Positions 3,469-9,613 of a stretch of DNA of 64,000 bases are shown in pieces (the first letter of the stretch is position 1; the number at the start of each line of letters is the position of its first letter). The notes under the pieces were generated by a model, which was given only the letters and a program-made list of their open reading frames with translations, was not told the origin of the DNA and searched no databases. Source of the stretch: Candidatus Latescibacterota bacterium (GTDB lineage: Bacteria; Latescibacterota; UBA2968); NCBI GenBank assembly GCA_965204375.1, contig OZ241986.1, positions 4,960,001 to 5,024,000 of the forward strand. The letters run 5' to 3'. The position numbers and the translations under genes were made by a program.

Positions 3469-4977
3469 CTATTGAATTTTCGCCCAATCGGGCATCACCC
3501 CGAGTTCAATACCCAGCACAACGCGACCAACAACAGCAATCGCAGCAGTAATCATCACCGCTCCTATCAAATTCAACCCTACGCCCACGCGCGCCATATC
3601 GCGCATCGCAATTCTATCCGTGCCAAACACAATTGCATTGGGCGGCGTAGCTACCGGCAACATAAACGCACAAGAACACGACAACGTGGCTGGAATCATC
3701 AGCAACAATGGATTGAGACCTACAGCCACAGATAACGCCGCCAAAACCGGAAGAAACATCTCTGCCGTTGCCGTATTGGAAGTCAACTCTGTCAAAAAAG
3801 TCATCATTACACACAAACCACCGACCAAAAATAGAGGATGCAAGCGCCCCATACCCTCTAACTGCTGCGCGCACCAGAGCGACAACCCCGACTCCTTAAA
3901 CCCACTTGCCAGAGCAAATCCACCGCCAATCAGCAACACAATATGCCAGGGCACGTTGCCAGCCGTTTGCCAATCCATCACTCTGGATTTCGCACCATCT
4001 CGCGCGGGTACGACAAATAAAATCAAAGCCATTGCCATAGCAACTGACCCATCGGTTATCAATCCGCCAGATTCGAAAAACTGAGACCAGCCCGGCAGCG
4101 TCCAATCGCCAATTTGAATGGGGCGTCTCGACAACCACAACAGCGCCAACAGCACAAAATCGGCCAGCACGATCTTCTCGGCAAATGACATTGGCCCCAA
4201 CTCGGCATATTGCGTTCGCACCACACTCAGATCAATATCATCGCCGCGACCGCGAATACCAAAAACGAGACAAAGCGCGCCCCACGCACAAACGAGCATC
4301 ACGCATGCCAGAGGCAGAGCAAACGCAAACCACGTCGCAAACGAAATCTCGGGAACCTCTGAAAAATGAATCGACAAAATCCTCACAAAAGACAAATTGG
4401 TCGGCGTACCCACAAGCGTTGCACTCCCACCAATTGAAGCCGCATAAGCCACCCCCAGAAACACCGCCGTGCCAAAAGAACCAGATGCCACACCCTGCTC
4501 TTCCATTCTAACCACAATAGCAAGTGCAATAGGCACCATCATCATCGTTGTTGCCGTATTGGAAATCCACATGGACAAAAACGCCGTTACCAGCATAAAA
4601 CCCGTCAGGATACACCGGGGACACCCTCCAAAAAGGAGCAGCAAGCGCAGGGCAATTCGCCGGTGTAAATTCCAGCGCTGCATGGCCAGTGCCACCATAA
4701 AACCACCGACAAACAAAAAGATAATGTGATTCAAATAAAGTGGCGCAACCTCTTGCCCGCTCATAATACCCAGCAGGGGAAACAGCACAACGGGCAACAG
4801 TGCCGTCGCAGCCAAAGGCACGGCCTCTGTCATCCACCAAACCGCCATCCAGCAGGCCACACCTGCCGTATGTGTTACCTCGGGATGTCCCGGCTTGAGG
4901 TCTCCAAAAACCGTGACACTCAGCCCAATTATCGGACCGAGCCACAGCCCCCAGCGTTCTATTTTTTTATTCAGCAT
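3469..4977 (-). CDS. SLC13/DASS family Na+-coupled anion (dicarboxylate/sulfate) symporter
   Basis: Two SNT motifs (ISNTAT, TSNTAT), GTPTN and ATPPNA loops, many TM helices. Confidence 0.9.
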   Translation of the reverse strand: MLNKKIERWGLWLGPIIGLSVTVFGDLKPGHPEVTHTAGVACWMAVWWMTEAVPLAATALLPVVLFPLLGIMSGQEVAPLYLNHIIFLFVGGFMVALAMQRWNLHRRIALRLLLLFGGCPRCILTGFMLVTAFLSMWISNTATTMMMVPIALAIVVRMEEQGVASGSFGTAVFLGVAYAASIGGSATLVGTPTNLSFVRILSIHFSEVPEISFATWFAFALPLACVMLVCAWGALCLVFGIRGRGDDIDLSVVRTQYAELGPMSFAEKIVLADFVLLALLWLSRRPIQIGDWTLPGWSQFFESGGLITDGSVAMAMALILFVVPARDGAKSRVMDWQTAGNVPWHIVLLIGGGFALASGFKESGLSLWCAQQLEGMGRLHPLFLVGGLCVMMTFLTELTSNTATAEMFLPVLAALSVAVGLNPLLLMIPATLSCSCAFMLPVATPPNAIVFGTDRIAMRDMARVGVGLNLIGAVMITAAIAVVGRVVLGIELGVMPDWAKIQ

Positions 4978-5133
4978 AGCTTCTCCATGGTCACATCTTT
5001 TAGAGATTCAACAATATATACCATAAAACAAAAAGTTAAAACTTGTTTGAGCCAACAAAAAATTGCACCTTTTGGGAACCTTTCCAACCCTTAAAAGTAA
5101 AAGAATATGCGACAAAGCGTGTCGCAAAAATAT

Positions 5134-5276
5134 CGGCGTTGACTCCTATACCCCGGCTGAGTCAACGCCGTTACTCTTTCTTGGAACTCTTTTCTGTACA
5201 AATGCGTCTAATCCGGTACCATGCAACATCCCTTGAGGCGTTGGTTATTCCCTCCCGACCGACGCCTCTTATTTTT
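5134..5276 (+). ncRNA. Candidate small RNA: hairpins with C-rich loops ending in a terminator
   Basis: Hairpin 5134-5170 (CGGCGTTGACTC/GAGTCAACGCCG). Hairpin 5235-5268 has a G-U pair on the + strand, loop TTATTCCCTCCCGA, then TTATTTTT. No clear promoter found. Confidence 0.35.
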
Positions 5277-5282
5277 ATAACT

Positions 5283-5306
5283 AAAAAAACTCCCCTCGGG
5301 GAGTTG
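5283..5306 (-). terminator. Intrinsic terminator after the sigma factor and small ORF
   Basis: Minus strand reads CAACTCCCCGAGGGGAG followed by T7. Confidence 0.75.
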
Positions 5307-5334
5307 ATATGCAGCGCCATTTCTGCTTATATCC

Positions 5335-5511
5335 TCACTTATTGGACTGCCAGCCAAGCGGAAACCGCCGCTCCTGCAAAATACGCCTGGCTTTATCTTT
5401 TTGTCCTTTCTCAATAAACCTGAGCAAAGACCGCACATCATCCGCGGTATAAACCCAATGCGTTTCATCGGGATTCAATCCATAACGCGGATCAACATAT
5501 TCTGTACGCAT
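5335..5511 (-). CDS. 58-aa small protein downstream of the sigma factor (below ORF-track cutoff)
   Basis: AAAGGAGG SD directly after the sigma stop, ATG at 5511, MRTEYVDPRYGLNPDETHWVYTADDVRSLLRFIEKGQKDKARRILQERRFPLGWQSNK*, followed by a terminator. Confidence 0.7.
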   Translation of the reverse strand: MRTEYVDPRYGLNPDETHWVYTADDVRSLLRFIEKGQKDKARRILQERRFPLGWQSNK

Positions 5512-5525
5512 ACAAACCTCCTTTC

Positions 5526-6365
5526 CTAATTATTATGCACATTCCGCACCAACAACCTCATATCGGGATGATGCCGCAGTTTTCGCAAAGCGTGAGCCTT
5601 AATTTGTCGCACGCGCTCGCGACTTAACTGAAACCGCATCCCAATCTCCAAAAGCGTCATTTGAGGCGCGCCATCCAGGCCAAAATACAGACAAATCACC
5701 TCTTTTTCGCGTGCATCGAGTAGATTCAGAGCCGATGCAATACCATCTTGAAGCGCGTTTTGAAACAAAGAGGCATCTGCTCCTGCTTGTGGATCTGACA
5801 ATTTTTCTTTCAGACAGAAGCTATCATCGGGGTGAAAGGGCATATCCAAAGACATAATAGGCTGCATATCGCTGAGCAAATCAGCCACATTTTCGCGCGT
5901 CAAATTAAAAGCCATTGCAATATCCCCCTGGGGGTCATCGCGGGGTTCTTGCTCTGAAAATCGGACAATTTTACGCAAAAGCTCAACGCGGCTGGCCGGC
6001 AGACGAATAGTGCGGGCGTGTTGCGCGATAGCCTGCTGGATCGACTGGCGTATCCACCAAACAGCATACGTGATAAACCGAAATCCCTTTTCTTCATCAA
6101 ACCGCTCCGCGGCCTTAATCAAACCCAAATTGCCAGCACCGATCAAATCGCTCATGGGCAGGCCCAAATTTTGATACCCTTTGGCCACGCGCATCACAAA
6201 GCGCAAATTGGCAACCACCAACCGGTTCCGCGCCTCTAAATCACCCTGTTTGATCTGCACAGCCAATTCGCGTTCTTTTTCGGGGGAGAGGGGTGTGCAA
6301 GCGGCCAGATCCGCCGTATAAGCATGCAACAAATCCATCGTGCGATCTGCCGAAACGGAAACCAT
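5526..6365 (-). CDS. RNA polymerase sigma-70 family factor (RpoD/SigA-like, no region 1.1)
   Basis: Region 2 (NLRFV..VAK.Y, DLIGAGNLGLIKAAERFD, FITYAVWWIRQ) and region 4 (SRERVRQI). Start at ATG 6365 behind AGGAGGAG. Confidence 0.9.
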   Translation of the reverse strand: MVSVSADRTMDLLHAYTADLAACTPLSPEKERELAVQIKQGDLEARNRLVVANLRFVMRVAKGYQNLGLPMSDLIGAGNLGLIKAAERFDEEKGFRFITYAVWWIRQSIQQAIAQHARTIRLPASRVELLRKIVRFSEQEPRDDPQGDIAMAFNLTRENVADLLSDMQPIMSLDMPFHPDDSFCLKEKLSDPQAGADASLFQNALQDGIASALNLLDAREKEVICLYFGLDGAPQMTLLEIGMRFQLSRERVRQIKAHALRKLRHHPDMRLLVRNVHNN

Positions 6366-6479
6366 CTTCTCCTCCTGTGAGTGAATAACGCAATATCTGG
6401 CACGAAAATACGCACAGGATGTTACAACCGCGTTTCTGTCAAGTGACAATCGCGTGGAGCATGTTCTATTTTATTTATA

Positions 6480-6573
6480 AACAAAAAAGCCTTTGAGGGT
6501 TCCCTCCCGACACCCTCAAAGGTTTGTAAGTCTGCTATAAAAGCAAAATAAATTCCAAAAATAACCCTGTCAA
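6480..6573 (-). ncRNA. Promoter plus ~58-nt terminated hairpin RNA or attenuating leader upstream of the sigma gene
   Basis: TTGACA (6573-6568), 17 bp, TATTTT (6550-6545). Hairpin CCTTTGAGGGT/ACCCTCAAAGG with loop GTCGGGAGGGA, then a T-tract. Transcribed strand is ambiguous because the + strand also has GTGACA-N18-TATTTT. Confidence 0.45.
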
Positions 6574-6686
6574 CAAAAAAAGCGGGCTGCCAACAGCACT
6601 CTATTTATCGGGAGGGAGGAAATAAACAGACATGCTGAGGCAACCCGCTGTATATAAAACATACCCAACTACAAAAACAACGTCAA
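6574..6686 (-). ncRNA. Promoter plus ~78-nt hairpin small RNA candidate with a C-rich loop
   Basis: TTGACG (6686-6681), 17 bp, TATGTT (6663-6658). Long stem AGCGGGTTGCC...GGCAGCCCGCT with G-U pairs on the minus strand, loop TTCCTCCCTCCCG, then T7. Confidence 0.5.
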
Positions 6687-6703
6687 GAGTATAAAAAAAA
6701 TTA

Positions 6704-9424
6704 TTACTCAAGCAGAGTCTGAATATCAAAAATCGTTGTCCTCGCCTTGATATCTTCGTGCCTCAATGCGTCCTTAATGCGGTCGGCATTCCCGTAAATA
6801 AGCATCAGCAATGGCAATTTGTTCTGACTGTTTAACATCCTTTTGAAAACGCGGCGAATATCCTCCTCCGTCACCCCATCAACAGCCGATTCGTATTCCT
6901 CCAGCGAAAGAGCGGGCACCCCATCGCGGTCATAGCGCACCTGCTGGCTGAGTCTGCTCTGCGGACCGAGTTGCAAATGATACGCTCGCTTGAGCCTTTC
7001 GCGACCTTTCTCCACCTGCGCCCAAAAATCTGGCTCAGACAAACAATGGTGAATCAACCGAAACATCTCGGGAACAAGCTCAGAAGTATAAACACCTCGA
7101 GGATCAGCCGAAAAACTCAGTACTGGCGGTGACGTCCTTTCGTCAATACTCACGCCCGTCGAATAACACCAGCCCTTTTGTTCGCGAAGCCGAATAAACA
7201 ACAGGCGGTCCAGCGCATTGACCAAAACCGTTTGTGCAAACCAATCCTCATTTGTGCGTGGCAAACCATTGGTTATCCAATAACAAAAATCAGCTTGATG
7301 GGTATATGGATAAATTAAAGCGTGCAAACCCGTAATCTCTTTGCGTTTGGGCCGGGGACGTGGCAAAAAACCATCTCGAACCCGGTTGTGCGTCATCACG
7401 CGCAAACTGCGTTCAATTTCCGATTTACTCAAATCGGAAGTCACCGTAAAAAAGAGGACTTTTGCGCGCAAGGTTCGATTCCAAAATTGTTGCAAGTCTT
7501 TCATTGTCAAATTTTCAAGTGCCGTGCGCGTACCTATCCTCCGGTCCTTGTCGTATTTGTACAGATGATACCTGAAAATTTCCGTTCCTTTATGGTCGTT
7601 AACATATTCCTCAAAATCGTCTATGATCCGCGCCCGTTCCTTATCTAACAGTTCTTTAGAGAATGTGAGATCTCTCATCATCACCTTCAGGCGTCTCAAA
7701 GCCGCATCCAAATTTTCGCTAAACACGGTCAGGTTAACGGTAACATATCGGTCAGAAATATTGAACCAGAACTCTGCGCCAAGCCGGTCCATCTCTTTTT
7801 TATCTTCCCCGTGTAATGCCAGATCATTCAGGCGAAAAAACGCAAAGGACAAACCGCGCGTATCCATTGTCTCCTGCAGATCCCCCCCTGTATAATACCT
7901 CATTGAAAGCCGCGTTTGCGGCACGCGCGTATCTTGCACGTAATATATCTTGTGATTGGAAATTTCTGCATCTGCTACCGAAATATTGCAAAGGACTACA
8001 AATAACCCCACTGCAAGTACTCGCCGTCGCCAGTACCAGCATCCTCCCACACCTGCGAGAACCCACACAATACCCACATAAAGCCACACATGCCGCGATG
8101 GTGGTCGCTCTGGAGACGAGACCAGAGCAAAAGTGCGGGGTGGCTGGTCCAAAAGATATTGCTTCACCACCCGCTTGACATCCGCCACAGTAATCTCATC
8201 GAGATTCTGCATCCACTTGAGACGATGGGCGGGATCGCTGGTGCGAATAAATCCAGAAGAGATCGCATTTGCCAGACGGGACTGACTGGTTATCGTGCGA
8301 TATAAAGTCTTACGCGCTTCGTTCCGCGCCAGCAGAAGATCCTCCTTAGATAAAGAATCGATAGCTGTTTGAATAATTTGTGGCATTTCCTTAACGTCAT
8401 AATATGCACCCGAGGGTAAGTCGGCTATAAAATAAAACAGTCCTTTATCGCGCAGAGCATACTGAGAGTAGCTTAGCTGAAGGGCTTTTCCAGAACTAAC
8501 CAGTTTTTGATGAGCAAGAGAATATTCACCTTCAAAAAGAGCTTTGGCAAATAAATACAAAGCGTAATAGTCCGGATGCGTATCTGTCGGAATATGCCAG
8601 ACACCCCAGACAGAAGAATGCAGACCACTTGTAGATTGCAGGGAATCCTGGGGGACAGATACATCCTCCAACGTATCAACATCATCGTGAATAAACCCCT
8701 CGTCCTTCGGTATCCCTCCAAAATGTTGAACCACAACGGGCAAAATATCAGTCCCTTTCACATCACCGACAATTACAAGACAGGCATTATTCGGCACGTA
8801 ATAACACTTGTGAAATGCGGTCGCTTGCTCCAGAGTAAAAGTTTTAATCGTATCGCGATGACCCAGAATATCGTACCGATAGGGATGTCCTGCAAACATG
8901 CGGGCATACAGCTTTTTGTAAAGCAACCGACGGGCGCCTTCGACATTACGCGCCCATTCAGCCAGAACCACCTCTTTTTCGAGATCAAATGCTTCCTGCG
9001 AAACATCAAACCGTGTCATACCCCGTGCAAAACTGGCGATCAGCGCGTCCAATTGCGCTTTGGGAACAGTCGCGTAGTATTTCGTGCCATCTCTCGACGT
9101 ACTGGCATTGGCGTGTGGTGCTTCCGAAAGGTGGAACGATTCTAAGAATGAGCGATCCACTGCGAGGTGCTCGACCAGATGCGCCATGCCCTGCCGGTCG
9201 GGTGCTTCGTGAGAAGATCCCACGCGATAGGCGATTTGGCACGTCACAACGGGACGGGTATCGTCTTCCACAATCGCAACCTGAAGGCCATTGGCGAGGC
9301 GATAGTGCTGGAGAGAAAGCGAGCCAGCAAGCGAAACATCGGCGACCTTTTGATAGGGCGGCGAACTTGCCAGTACCTGAAGCGGCAAAAGACAGAGAAG
9401 AAGAGGAAAATATCTGGAACGCAT
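6704..9424 (-). CDS. M16 (pitrilysin-like) zinc peptidase; active and inactive halves joined by a hydrophobic linker
   Basis: HxxEH motif (HLVEH) and downstream E (EKEVVLAE). C-terminal half lacks HxxEH but has LRE..G..Y. Start moved to ATG 9424 (signal peptide MRSRYFPLLLCLLPLQVLA, GAGG RBS). Confidence 0.85.
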   Translation of the reverse strand: MRSRYFPLLLCLLPLQVLASSPPYQKVADVSLAGSLSLQHYRLANGLQVAIVEDDTRPVVTCQIAYRVGSSHEAPDRQGMAHLVEHLAVDRSFLESFHLSEAPHANASTSRDGTKYYATVPKAQLDALIASFARGMTRFDVSQEAFDLEKEVVLAEWARNVEGARRLLYKKLYARMFAGHPYRYDILGHRDTIKTFTLEQATAFHKCYYVPNNACLVIVGDVKGTDILPVVVQHFGGIPKDEGFIHDDVDTLEDVSVPQDSLQSTSGLHSSVWGVWHIPTDTHPDYYALYLFAKALFEGEYSLAHQKLVSSGKALQLSYSQYALRDKGLFYFIADLPSGAYYDVKEMPQIIQTAIDSLSKEDLLLARNEARKTLYRTITSQSRLANAISSGFIRTSDPAHRLKWMQNLDEITVADVKRVVKQYLLDQPPRTFALVSSPERPPSRHVWLYVGIVWVLAGVGGCWYWRRRVLAVGLFVVLCNISVADAEISNHKIYYVQDTRVPQTRLSMRYYTGGDLQETMDTRGLSFAFFRLNDLALHGEDKKEMDRLGAEFWFNISDRYVTVNLTVFSENLDAALRRLKVMMRDLTFSKELLDKERARIIDDFEEYVNDHKGTEIFRYHLYKYDKDRRIGTRTALENLTMKDLQQFWNRTLRAKVLFFTVTSDLSKSEIERSLRVMTHNRVRDGFLPRPRPKRKEITGLHALIYPYTHQADFCYWITNGLPRTNEDWFAQTVLVNALDRLLFIRLREQKGWCYSTGVSIDERTSPPVLSFSADPRGVYTSELVPEMFRLIHHCLSEPDFWAQVEKGRERLKRAYHLQLGPQSRLSQQVRYDRDGVPALSLEEYESAVDGVTEEDIRRVFKRMLNSQNKLPLLMLIYGNADRIKDALRHEDIKARTTIFDIQTLLE

Positions 9425-9613
9425 CACGAAATCCTCATGGTTGGCTAAATGCTTATTCCAGAATACCAAAATTTTCCAACGTGTGCAACGCCCAAAAAAC
9501 CTCTGGCTCCTGAAAAACACGCGCCGATTAGCCCTGGCTTTTCCGTTGCTTTTCTCGCGCAAACTGATAATTTACCACATCTCATCTGAAACCCCGTTGC
9601 GAAAGGTCCTCTT

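Follow-up and report, generated by a model that had tools for sequence, protein, structure and literature searches.

A conserved cluster of candidate small regulatory RNA genes with complementary hairpin loops in Candidatus Latescibacterota

Organization of the locus

The window, which is the whole stretch of 64,000 nucleotides that was analysed, derives from an uncultured, sponge- and coral-associated member of Candidatus Latescibacterota. Judged from its sequence, the region described here looks like a conserved cluster of candidate small regulatory RNA genes of this phylum, with R1a and R1b encoded on the plus strand and A and B on the minus strand. The predicted features of the region are as follows.

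5075–5102, plus strand: box GGAACC-N16-GTAAAA upstream of R1a, a putative ECF-sigma-like promoter, present at 17 of 18 aligned loci
5107–5182, plus strand: candidate sRNA R1a, with a hairpin at 5109–5125, a second hairpin at 5134–5170 (loop CUAUACCCCGGCU) and a U-rich tail
5183–5211, plus strand: box GGAACT-N16-CGTCTAA upstream of R1b, a putative second promoter, present at 16 of 18 loci and with a different spacer in genus g9
5215–5278, plus strand: candidate sRNA R1b, about 60 nt from a predicted 5' end, with a single-stranded 5' part (GUACCAUGCAACAUCCC), a terminator hairpin at 5236–5268 and a U-tract at 5269–5278
5288–5305, minus strand: predicted intrinsic terminator of the small-ORF/sigma unit
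5335–5511, minus strand: ORF of 58 aa, genus-restricted (only 4 protein clusters found)
5526–6365, minus strand: gene of the sigma-70 family, encoding 279 aa with regions 2 and 4 and resembling RpoS/RpoD, although its scores stay under the NCBIfam cut-offs
6366–6479, minus strand: leader, common to sigma (here) and to the small ORF (genomes G017 and G019)
6480–6538, minus strand: candidate sRNA B, about 59 nt, with a hairpin at 6490–6522, the invariant loop UCGGGAGGGA (6510–6501) and a U-tract at 6489–6480
6545–6573, minus strand: B promoter TTGACA-17-TATTTT from the promoter scan, its −35 box abutting the U-tract of A
6575–6651, minus strand: candidate sRNA A, about 77 nt, with a long hairpin at 6582–6648, the loop UCCUCCCUCCC (6620–6610) running into GAU, and a U-tract at 6581–6575
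6658–6686, minus strand: A promoter TTGACG-17-TATGTT from the promoter scan, conserved in the genus

A rare motif in the loops of three hairpins

The original prediction held that a 12-mer and its complement each occupy the loop of a different stem, and three methods (reading of the sequence, a pattern search and a repeat finder) agreed on this, locating TTCCCTCCCGAC at 5248–5259 and 6500–6511 and TCGGGAGGGA at 6608–6617. The hairpins themselves were placed at 5236–5268 (plus strand), 6490–6522 and 6582–6648, matching the earlier positions. Exact copies of TCCCTCCCGA lie at 5249 (plus), 6501 (plus) and 6608 (minus), each forming the loop of a separate strong hairpin. When one mismatch was allowed, the window contained 6 matches against 3.18 expected; since 8 of 100 shuffles equalled this number, the one-mismatch count alone is unremarkable. 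The remarkable part is the presence of three exact copies inside 1.4 kb.

The whole genome (6.34 Mb) contains 10 exact copies of the motif (6 forward and 4 reverse, compared with 4 copies of the reversed control pattern), and only the three described here fall in a hairpin loop in minimum free energy folds of 100-nt contexts. We therefore rejected the idea of an abundant, generic dispersed repeat. The shorter core CCCTCCC/GGGAGGG occurs at 470 genomic sites, of which 11 in the C-rich sense and 21 in the G-rich sense lie in the loop of a stem of 7 bp or more. The stems of the present locus measure 10–14 bp, which is equalled only by a paralogue at genome position 1575612 and an unrelated G-rich-sense stem of 13 bp at 5472225. 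Three 'ATATCGGGAGGGCGGTATTTTTTT' sites were discarded, because GGGAGGG is located there in the stem of the terminator of a repeated element and not in a loop.

Conservation, strand and transcription signals

A, B, R1a and R1b are conserved throughout the genus, in each of its 21 genomes. The stem of A shows compensatory changes in 14 of 24 pairs, with 97.3% of cells paired (26 sequences from 5 genera); none of 500 shuffles scored as high, and slid controls gave 0–4 pairs. The inner A/U stem of A (UUUAUU/GAUAAA) is invariant in sequence across genera, and 5 of the 8 pairs of helix 4 never vary. In B, 7 of 16 stem pairs are compensatory and the loop CGGGAG(G/A)GA is kept (25 sequences). The loop UCCCUCCCGA is found in A throughout, including this genome, where R1b carries it as well; all R1b sequences share the core CCCUCCC, and both loops are unpaired in the consensus structures. 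A further C-rich RNA is the paralogue A2. The loops are thus the conserved element on covarying stems, as had been proposed, and the opposite pattern of kept stems with changing loops was not seen.

The strands were assigned on the basis of the many G-U pairs, which would become A-C on the opposite strand. The G-U pairs in the R1b stem are compatible only with the plus strand, a covariance model for B scored 50–60 bits higher on the minus strand than on the plus strand, and U-tracts occur only on the proposed strands. G-U pairs and U-tracts accordingly support the earlier proposal that each hairpin belongs to a structured RNA on the strand given. The plus-strand hairpin had been regarded as belonging to one RNA. 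A structured RNA on that strand stood up to scrutiny, although two tandem sRNA genes are probably present and not one. R1a is near-invariant in 15 genomes; its homologues in g9 keep both hairpins with changed stem sequences and have a U9 tail. The fold of the whole R1 segment (about 5107–5278) has a z-score of −4.9. Homologues of the R1a box are present in g9 and g4 with a different spacer, and insertions of about 150 nt in genomes G012 and G001 sit just upstream of the R1b box. The strict box motif (GGAAC-N15/16-CGTnnAA) was not enriched genome-wide, with 10 sites versus 7 in the reversed control, and a genome-wide regulon was accordingly rejected.

On the minus strand, the two predicted promoters with 17-bp spacers were found at 6573–6545 and 6686–6658 and are conserved in relatives, as are the U-tract terminators of A and B. 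The A promoter form TTGAC(A/G)-N17-TAnnTT occurs in other genera too, and the B form TTGACA-N16/17-TAnnnT is preserved, with differing spacers, in four genera; B matches the consensus boxes at 10 of 12 positions and A at 9 of 12. The promoter scan returned 4 promoter-like sites compared to 2.8 expected in shuffles, and this near-shuffle count means that it confirms the positions of the boxes and not a more-than-chance status. Of the 26 loci that contain A, 25 have B immediately after it on the same strand, the exception being genome G134, where A is present and the adjacent B is absent. The TTGACA box of B abuts the U-tract of A in genera g1, g5, g7 and g9. Three other genera also contain the A-B tandem, where unrelated genes adjoin it; its neighbours are a DASS transporter and an M16 peptidase at the present locus, purL in family f2 and a TPR gene in g9. 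A and B are thus adjacent genes on one strand, and R1b and B converge without overlap. In named genome records, 7 of 30 pattern matches (Clostridiales, Caenarcanales, Ferruginibacter, Bacillus, Bacteroidales, Bacteroidetes and Lysinibacillus) had no covariance-model match and were dismissed as chance.

All three loop-bearing hairpins are followed by a U-tract, and in 12 of the 21 genomes the terminators of R1b and B face each other as a convergent pair, only about 25 nt apart with no gene in between. This is what one would expect if the hairpins did nothing as RNAs and were simply intrinsic terminators or a motif at the DNA level. We consider this extremely improbable: A and B possess conserved promoters of their own and have no upstream gene in the unit in other genera, invariant loops on changing stems across families are abnormal for terminators, and a motif with 10 genomic copies is not a dispersed repeat.

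The locus is also covered by metatranscriptome contigs, which are unstranded, convey neither strand, ends nor level, and carry no evidence for the stretches that they leave uncovered. One of 244 nt (6496–6703) includes the A promoter, so that DNA carry-over or read-through is possible. Another joins 5542 to 6338, skipping 795 nt within the sigma gene.

The sigma gene belongs to a variable cassette

According to the original prediction, the hairpins would constitute an RNA circuit gating the sigma factor. This is not supported by the comparison of genomes, since only 5 of the 21 genomes of the genus carry the sigma gene, 12 of the 21 lack both sigma and the 58-aa ORF, and the A-B tandem elsewhere adjoins unrelated genes. 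The sigma gene is contained in an indel spanning about 5290–6465. The 58-aa ORF, for which no Pfam or NCBIfam match was found, occurs without sigma in G017, G019 and G011 and is apparently degenerate in G001. Judged by their distribution, the sigma gene and the 58-aa ORF form a variable cassette, located downstream of B in some lineages and gained or lost by lineage-specific insertion or deletion, and not the core of the system. The tempting reading of sigma control by hairpins is hereby corrected, the sigma gene being a passenger at a variable site. Occlusion of the sigma ribosome-binding site by a C-rich loop had likewise been suggested; the predicted pairing (−12.6 kcal/mol) ranked 1621 among 13277 crude ORF starts, a set that includes many spurious six-frame ORFs, and this unremarkable rank led us to reject the site as a special target.

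The distribution also bears on the idea that B is a leader attenuator, in which binding of the A or R1b loop would gate read-through into sigma or the small ORF. In 9 of the 21 genomes B is followed by a same-strand gene, either the small ORF alone or the small ORF together with sigma, a gene starts about 50 nt after B in g9, and one metatranscriptome contig (6338–6559) bridges B and the leader. The gene regulated by a 5' leader attenuator should always be found downstream in the unit, whereas in 12 of the 21 genomes nothing but the convergent R1b terminator comes after B, in spite of the full conservation of B with its promoter and loop, and sigma is restricted to 5. Upon inspection of the sequence, the loop complementarity was found to stop short of the B stem, which gives no indication of strand invasion into the terminator. 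Two contigs from one study end just downstream of the B terminator (6454 and 6462), which is a weak hint in the same direction. Taken together, we regard attenuation as highly improbable.

Loop-loop pairing and a possible decoy RNA

The loops of A and B are complementary over 12 bp (11 Watson-Crick pairs and one G-U pair; predicted duplex energy −24.0 kcal/mol), and those of R1b and B at 12 of 12 positions (−26.2 kcal/mol), which bears out the proposed complementarity. That between A and B is kept across genera, mostly by conservation and not by compensatory change; in G001 (A loop CCCAAU) and in G024 (B loop GGGAGAG) one A-B pair is lost with no compensation. The A and B loops might each be independently constrained by the Shine-Dalgarno/anti-Shine-Dalgarno code. 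A helix of 11–13 bp between two loops of 11–13 nt is topologically strained. The 3' end of the 16S rRNA reads GGAUCACCUCCUUUCU, the C-rich loop contains the anti-Shine-Dalgarno core CCUCC, and the B loop, with two GGA triplets, resembles a Shine-Dalgarno sequence.

GGGAGGG stands before a start codon and an ORF of 60 aa or more at 110 of the 470 core sites; the genome thus offers G-rich Shine-Dalgarno sites that could serve as targets. Searches of the own genome brought out no specific or extended mRNA target: two extra copies of TTTATCGGGAGGG and one similar extended match all lie inside coding regions, and the complement of the conserved 5' segment of R1b had no match with up to two mismatches except its own gene. 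CsrA (PF02599), which was detected in control genomes, and Hfq were not found in the own genome (95.98% complete). This fits direct pairing of the C-rich loops as in Hfq-independent systems, and it led us to reject a CsrA sponge or an Hfq-dependent sRNA.

By analogy with RoxS and RosA, we favor, with confidence that is evenly balanced, the explanation that A and R1b serve as anti-Shine-Dalgarno-like seed RNAs, with B as their loop-loop decoy. A and R1b would each present a C-rich apical loop holding CCUCC and dock, Hfq-free, on G-rich ribosome-binding sites of mRNAs. B would be transcribed from its own sigma-70-type promoter right after the A terminator, its loop UCGGGAGGGA being the exact complement, and as a dedicated decoy or sponge it would titrate A and R1b, or vice versa, through a kissing duplex of 11–13 bp. 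That the RNAs are transcribed and pair in vivo, in which direction control would run, and that mRNAs would be targeted is what we infer from sequence features.

The roles could be reversed, with B, as a Shine-Dalgarno look-alike, being the effector on C-rich mRNA sites or the 16S anti-Shine-Dalgarno tail and A and R1b its antagonists. The structural and linkage evidence for this is identical, the promoter of B is the better match, and a single B faces two or three C-rich RNAs at the least, namely A, R1b and the paralogue A2. By hand alignment, however, the B loop matches A over 11–13 nt and the 16S tail over only about 5–6 nt, and in the known precedents, as far as excerpts of PMC8216469 go, the regulators are C-rich and the sponges G-rich. 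The reversed arrangement thus appears unlikely. We also considered that the loops are sites for an RNA-binding protein, which would make these protein-sponge RNAs and the complementarity incidental or secondary. The two GGA triplets in B would suit such a role, as would the invariant inner stem of A, which pure pairing would not need. Against it speak the failure to find CsrA and Hfq in the genome, the single hairpin per RNA as opposed to the many repeats of CsrB/RsmZ-type sponges, and the expectation that one protein would not read two complementary sequences, and we judge it very unlikely. A bolder view, which we rate as decidedly unlikely, is that A and B together form an autonomous module of two RNAs, which moves from one genomic context to another in Latescibacterota, its members being mutually neutralizing anti-Shine-Dalgarno and Shine-Dalgarno mimics that act as a global translation-initiation rheostat. 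A and B would then set the available G-rich ribosome-binding sites, or even the free 30S anti-Shine-Dalgarno tails; the abutting terminator and promoter would couple their transcription rates, and stress-type promoters (GGAAC-N16-CGT) would feed R1b, as a second anti-Shine-Dalgarno RNA, into the same decoy.

Comparison with known systems

The original prediction recognized no described family, and none emerged from Rfam: the whole window had no family at gathering thresholds, and a search of the region with E-values up to 10 yielded 7 hits at chance level, with no C-rich sRNA family among them. Searches of full-text literature found no description of small RNAs in Latescibacterota and, for CCCUCCC sRNAs, nothing relevant among the matches listed. 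These would rank among the first sRNA candidates for this uncultured sponge- and coral-associated phylum, and their comparative support is unusually clean.

B shares a GGA-containing hairpin loop with CsrB/RsmZ-type sponges but consists of a single hairpin, in a genome where no CsrA gene was found. CopA/CopT and RNAI/RNAII exert antisense kissing-loop control of plasmid replication; these pairs are cis-antisense, arising from one DNA segment, and fully complementary. Here too, complementary hairpin loops would initiate the RNA-RNA contact, whereas A and B are separate same-strand genes that are complementary only in their loops.

In the cuckoo RNAs of Alphaproteobacteria (RSs0680/CcsR, SmelC397 and others), as described in excerpts of PMC4615179, CCUCCUCCC is found in 2–4 adjacent hairpins. 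The present RNAs resemble them in having a conserved anti-Shine-Dalgarno-like C-rich loop on stems that vary by compensatory mutations, and differ in having one hairpin per RNA with the loop UCCCUCCCGA. A complementary partner RNA is absent from the excerpted description of the cuckoo RNAs (PMC4615179), which reports one member as Hfq-bound; Hfq was not found in the present genome.

The closest parallels are RoxS and FsrA with the sponge RosA in Bacillus subtilis, and RsaE with RsaI in Staphylococcus (excerpts of PMC8216469). [quoted passage not shown] Like RoxS and FsrA, A and R1b expose a C-rich region, which in their consensus structures is an unpaired loop. Like RosA in that account, B is a stand-alone gene at the sequence level: it has a promoter and a terminator of its own, together with an unpaired G-rich region of complementary sequence; as RosA binds several C-rich sRNAs, so B complements the loops of both A and R1b. 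In contrast to RsaE and RoxS, to which A, B and R1b show no homology in sequence or structure (no Rfam match), each of the present RNAs is essentially one hairpin and the contact, in this respect also unlike that of RoxS and RosA, would be loop-loop. The B gene is moreover coupled to the A gene, its promoter abutting the A terminator in a tandem conserved across families, and the host belongs to a distant and uncultured phylum. If B is a decoy adjoining its regulator, the Firmicutes-type design of C-rich sRNA and sponge would have arisen independently in a distant lineage without detectable Hfq and CsrA, and in a single-hairpin, loop-loop form that is simple enough for in vitro or heterologous testing.

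Candidate small RNA genes in a conserved intergenic sequence

The conserved part of the locus is an intergenic sequence of ~525 bp that resolves into small transcription units: the candidate small RNA genes A and B on the minus strand, and the R1 segment, with candidates R1a and R1b, on the plus strand.

Features of the locus (window coordinates)
3469-4977, minus: DASS/citrate-type transporter
5107-5182, plus: candidate sRNA R1a
5215-5278, plus: candidate sRNA R1b
5335-5511, minus: 58-aa ORF, no family
5526-6365, minus: sigma-70 family protein (279 aa; regions 2 and 4), closest to RpoS/RpoD models but far below their cut-offs
6489-6480, minus: B U-tract
6490-6522, minus: B hairpin
6573-6545, minus: B promoter, TTGACA-17-TATTTT
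6581-6575, minus: A U-tract
6582-6648, minus: A long hairpin
6686-6658, minus: A promoter, TTGACG-17-TATGTT
6704-9562, minus: M16 peptidase

R1 comprises ~170 nt and is almost invariant; its predicted fold has three strong hairpins (MFE -53.5 kcal/mol, z = -4.9). We read it as two tandem genes because two genomes (G012 and G001) accommodate insertions of ~150 nt between hairpin 2 and the remainder, because a U9 tract follows hairpin 2 in genus g9, because a conserved GGAAC-N16-(C/A)GTnnAA box precedes each half (R1a at 17 of 18 loci, R1b at 16 of 18), and because g9 carries the same boxes with different spacers. The insertions (loci L026 and L030) lie between R1a hairpin 2 and the R1b GGAAC box, contain internal inverted repeats and are possibly a miniature mobile element. 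Judged against consensus sequences, we infer that the boxes resemble ECF-sigma promoters; across the genome, the strict box shows no enrichment (10 sites versus 7 for the control). No Rfam family matches, in keeping with the original prediction, which had recognised no described RNA family. We consider it highly probable that A, B, R1a and R1b are genuine structured sRNA genes.

The stretch occurs in runs labelled as coral and sponge metagenomes, and contigs from RNA libraries cover much of the locus. Run X19 yields a 174-nt contig covering 5051-5224 and a 244-nt contig covering 6496-6703, X9 has contigs over nearly the whole stretch, and X16 and X17, from one study, each contribute a contig (1222 nt over 5232-6454 and 1146 nt over 5315-6462). 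Since assembled metatranscriptome contigs carry no strand, ends or level, RNA libraries may contain DNA, and the 244-nt contig extends across the A promoter, we take them as compatible with transcription of the locus, not as proof. The contig ends at 6454 and 6462, just below the B terminator, weakly hint that the sigma mRNA begins at this point; they would be explained equally well if the assembly broke in the A/T-rich hairpin region.

Invariant loops on covarying stems

Two copies of the motif TTCCCTCCCGAC (5248-5259, 6500-6511) and one of its complement TCGGGAGGGA (6608-6617) are present, as originally described and as a repeat finder agrees. Allowing one mismatch, the motif is not enriched within the window (6 found versus 3.18 expected; at least 6 in 8 of 100 shuffles), and the notable feature is instead the presence of three exact copies inside 1.4 kb. 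The 6.34-Mb genome holds 10 exact copies, versus 4 for the reversed control, and when their 100-nt contexts were folded only these three lay in hairpin loops. A genome-wide scan of 470 CCCTCCC/GGGAGGG sites, with loops defined as closed by a stem of at least 7 bp, gave 11 C-rich-sense and 21 G-rich-sense loops. Among these the locus copies stand out with stems of 10-14 bp, comparable stems being found only in one C-rich case (genome position 1575612) and in an unrelated G-rich-sense 13-bp stem at 5472225. Three copies of a ~150-nt repeated element (genome 5162131, 4357292 and 1936387 (-)) were rejected as B-like: each closes with the terminator GCCGCTCTCC-loop-GGGAGGGCGG and a U-tract, and because GGGAGGG is part of the stem the element is unrelated to B. 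Another repeated sequence, containing GCGATTTTGAATGGTATTGACCTGCGCG, has about 20 near-identical copies in the genome (e.g. 271809, 785706, 1037280) and presumably belongs to a mobile element gene present in many copies.

The claim that loops rather than stems are conserved was upheld, as the stems of A and B covary and their loops are fixed. Within the genus, all 24 predicted A pairs are kept in 20 sequences; many of them are G-U, or change from G-C to G-U, and would become mismatches if read on the opposite strand. Across genera (26 sequences, 25 distinct, in an alignment fitted to the model), 14 of the 24 pairs changed on both sides and 97.3% of cells are paired; with this model-fitted alignment none of 500 shuffles reached any of the measures, and slid controls gave 0-4 pairs. 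For B, 7 of 16 pairs are compensatory (25 sequences). Only 1 of 45 R1 pairs varies within the genus, too little for a covariation test; by inspection, hairpins 1 and 2 are both retained in the homologues from g9, where the stems differ in sequence. The loop of A is fixed as UCCCUCCCGAU, apart from a single G-to-A change in G001, that of B as CGGGAGGGA (GGGAGAG in G024), and that of R1b as CCCUCCC, flanked by either GAC or AAC. The inner A/U stem of A, UUUAUU/GAUAAA (within 6582-6648 (-)), is sequence-invariant across five genera, 5 of its 8 pairs never varying, and the outer stem covaries freely; simple loop pairing does not explain this invariance.

Distribution and linkage of A and B

The A model matches 28 of 151 sampled phylum genomes (E <= 0.001): 19/19 sampled genomes of the window's own genus, g1, plus the window's genome, G000, and in other genera 2/3 (g9), 1/1 (g5), 1/2 (g7) and 1/2 (g8). 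A few weak matches also occur. B was found in 19/19 (g1), 2/3 (g9) and 1/1 (g5). With search filters off, B lies directly downstream of A on the same strand at 25 of 26 A-holding loci, the sole locus where no adjacent B was found being that of G134 (g8). In all four tandem-bearing genera the B TTGACA box directly follows the A U-tract, with a TAnnnT box 16-17 nt on and unrelated spacers between the two. The neighbours differ: in family f2 A has purL as a divergent neighbour, and in g9 the gene after B encodes a TPR protein. By BLAST, R1 is present in 19/19 (g1) and 2/3 (g9, on contigs other than those of A-B), and partially in g4. A loop-plus-inner-stem pattern matched 30 contigs in a collection of 185,579 species; the A model confirmed 23, of which 22 are titled Latescibacter* and one only 'bacterium'. 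As these records duplicate genomes of our sample, they are not independent support. The other 7 are chance matches without model support.

A weaker A paralogue (E = 7.9e-5) lies outside the window (G000:C1:1575572-1575658 (+)). Its long hairpin carries the loop CCCCUCCC, and its U-tract is again followed by GTTGACA; on one side lies a 364-aa ORF and on the other an operon whose ORFs resemble, by eye, a CoxM/CoxS/CoxL-type dehydrogenase. No B-like partner was seen adjoining it; similar matches occur in G017, G002, G013, G016, G011, G005 and G010. At locus L081 (G024, g5), a hairpin-like element, AAAGGCA...TGCCTTT with a T-run, follows B by ~40 nt and could be a further small RNA.

The sigma gene lies in a variable cassette

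The original prediction that the RNAs gate the sigma factor was not supported. A DNA search of 40 relatives and alignment of the fetched loci revealed sigma with the 58-aa ORF in only 5 of 21 genus genomes (G000, G014, G013, G002, G005). Four carry the ORF behind the same leader without a sigma CDS (G017, G019, G011 and, as a degenerate copy, G001). In the remaining 12, window 4981-5288 is contiguous with 6465-6703 with no gene between, and the R1b and B terminators converge ~25 nt apart; one of these, G006, retains an 84-nt remnant of ORF end and leader. An X9 contig joins 5542 to 6338, skipping 5543-6337 (795 nt, in frame), and is another natural variant lacking most of sigma. The indel (5290-6465) comprises sigma gene, ORF, leader and terminator, its junctions lying in similar A/T-rich sequence (left TTATTTTTATAAC.AAAAAA, right TTTTATTTATAAACAAAAAAG). 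In the leader upstream of sigma or the ORF (6410-6445 (-)) lies a TGTCAC-N16-(C/T)GTAAC box, which is conserved in the corresponding leaders at L023 and L029. It is similar to the GGAAC-N16-CGT boxes preceding R1a and R1b and could serve the cassette as a promoter of its own. Nor is the sigma ribosome-binding site a special match of the C-rich loop: its translation-initiation region pairs with the A loop at -12.6 kcal/mol (population mean -7.6, sd 4.1) and, at rank 1621 among 13277 crude ORF starts, does not surpass other genes with a strong SD. The observation itself was confirmed and strengthened by the comparative data; its link to sigma is not supported.

Proposed mechanism

Given the 16S rRNA end, GGAUCACCUCCUUUCU, CCUCC in the loops of A and R1b corresponds to the anti-SD core, and the loop of B reads as a strong SD; of the 470 GGGAGGG sites, 110 lie ahead of a start codon that opens an ORF of at least 60 aa. 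The predicted loop-loop duplexes reach -24.0 kcal/mol (12 bp) for A:B and -26.2 kcal/mol for R1b:B. By hand alignment, the B loop matches A over 11-13 nt, flanking UCG/CGA included, versus only about 5-6 nt of the 16S tail, and this is our main reason to think that the A:B match was selected and is not an SD-code by-product. We regard functional A:B pairing as somewhat favoured. A and R1b would act as Hfq-independent seed-loop RNAs occluding G-rich ribosome-binding sites, and B as a dedicated decoy neutralising both by kissing; this full reading, including the direction of control, we hold at even odds. Rival readings exchange the roles of the RNAs, or take the elements as an attenuator, as a protein sponge or as mere terminators. 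Neither CsrA (PF02599) nor Hfq (PF17209) was detected in the genome (95.98% complete), and both searches detected the control genomes.

Comparison with known systems

None of the papers listed by our full-text searches concerned sRNAs of Latescibacterota. [quoted passage not shown] A/R1b and B would be similar to these systems in working mode. The fixed loops on drifting stems recall the alphaproteobacterial cuckoo RNAs, which keep CCUCCUCCC in hairpin loops while stems drift (PMC4615179). A, B and R1b are members of neither group: they lack homology to them, differ in motif and architecture, and have the putative regulator A genetically coupled to its complement B. We rate A and B as a probable new sRNA family pair of a functional kind already known elsewhere.
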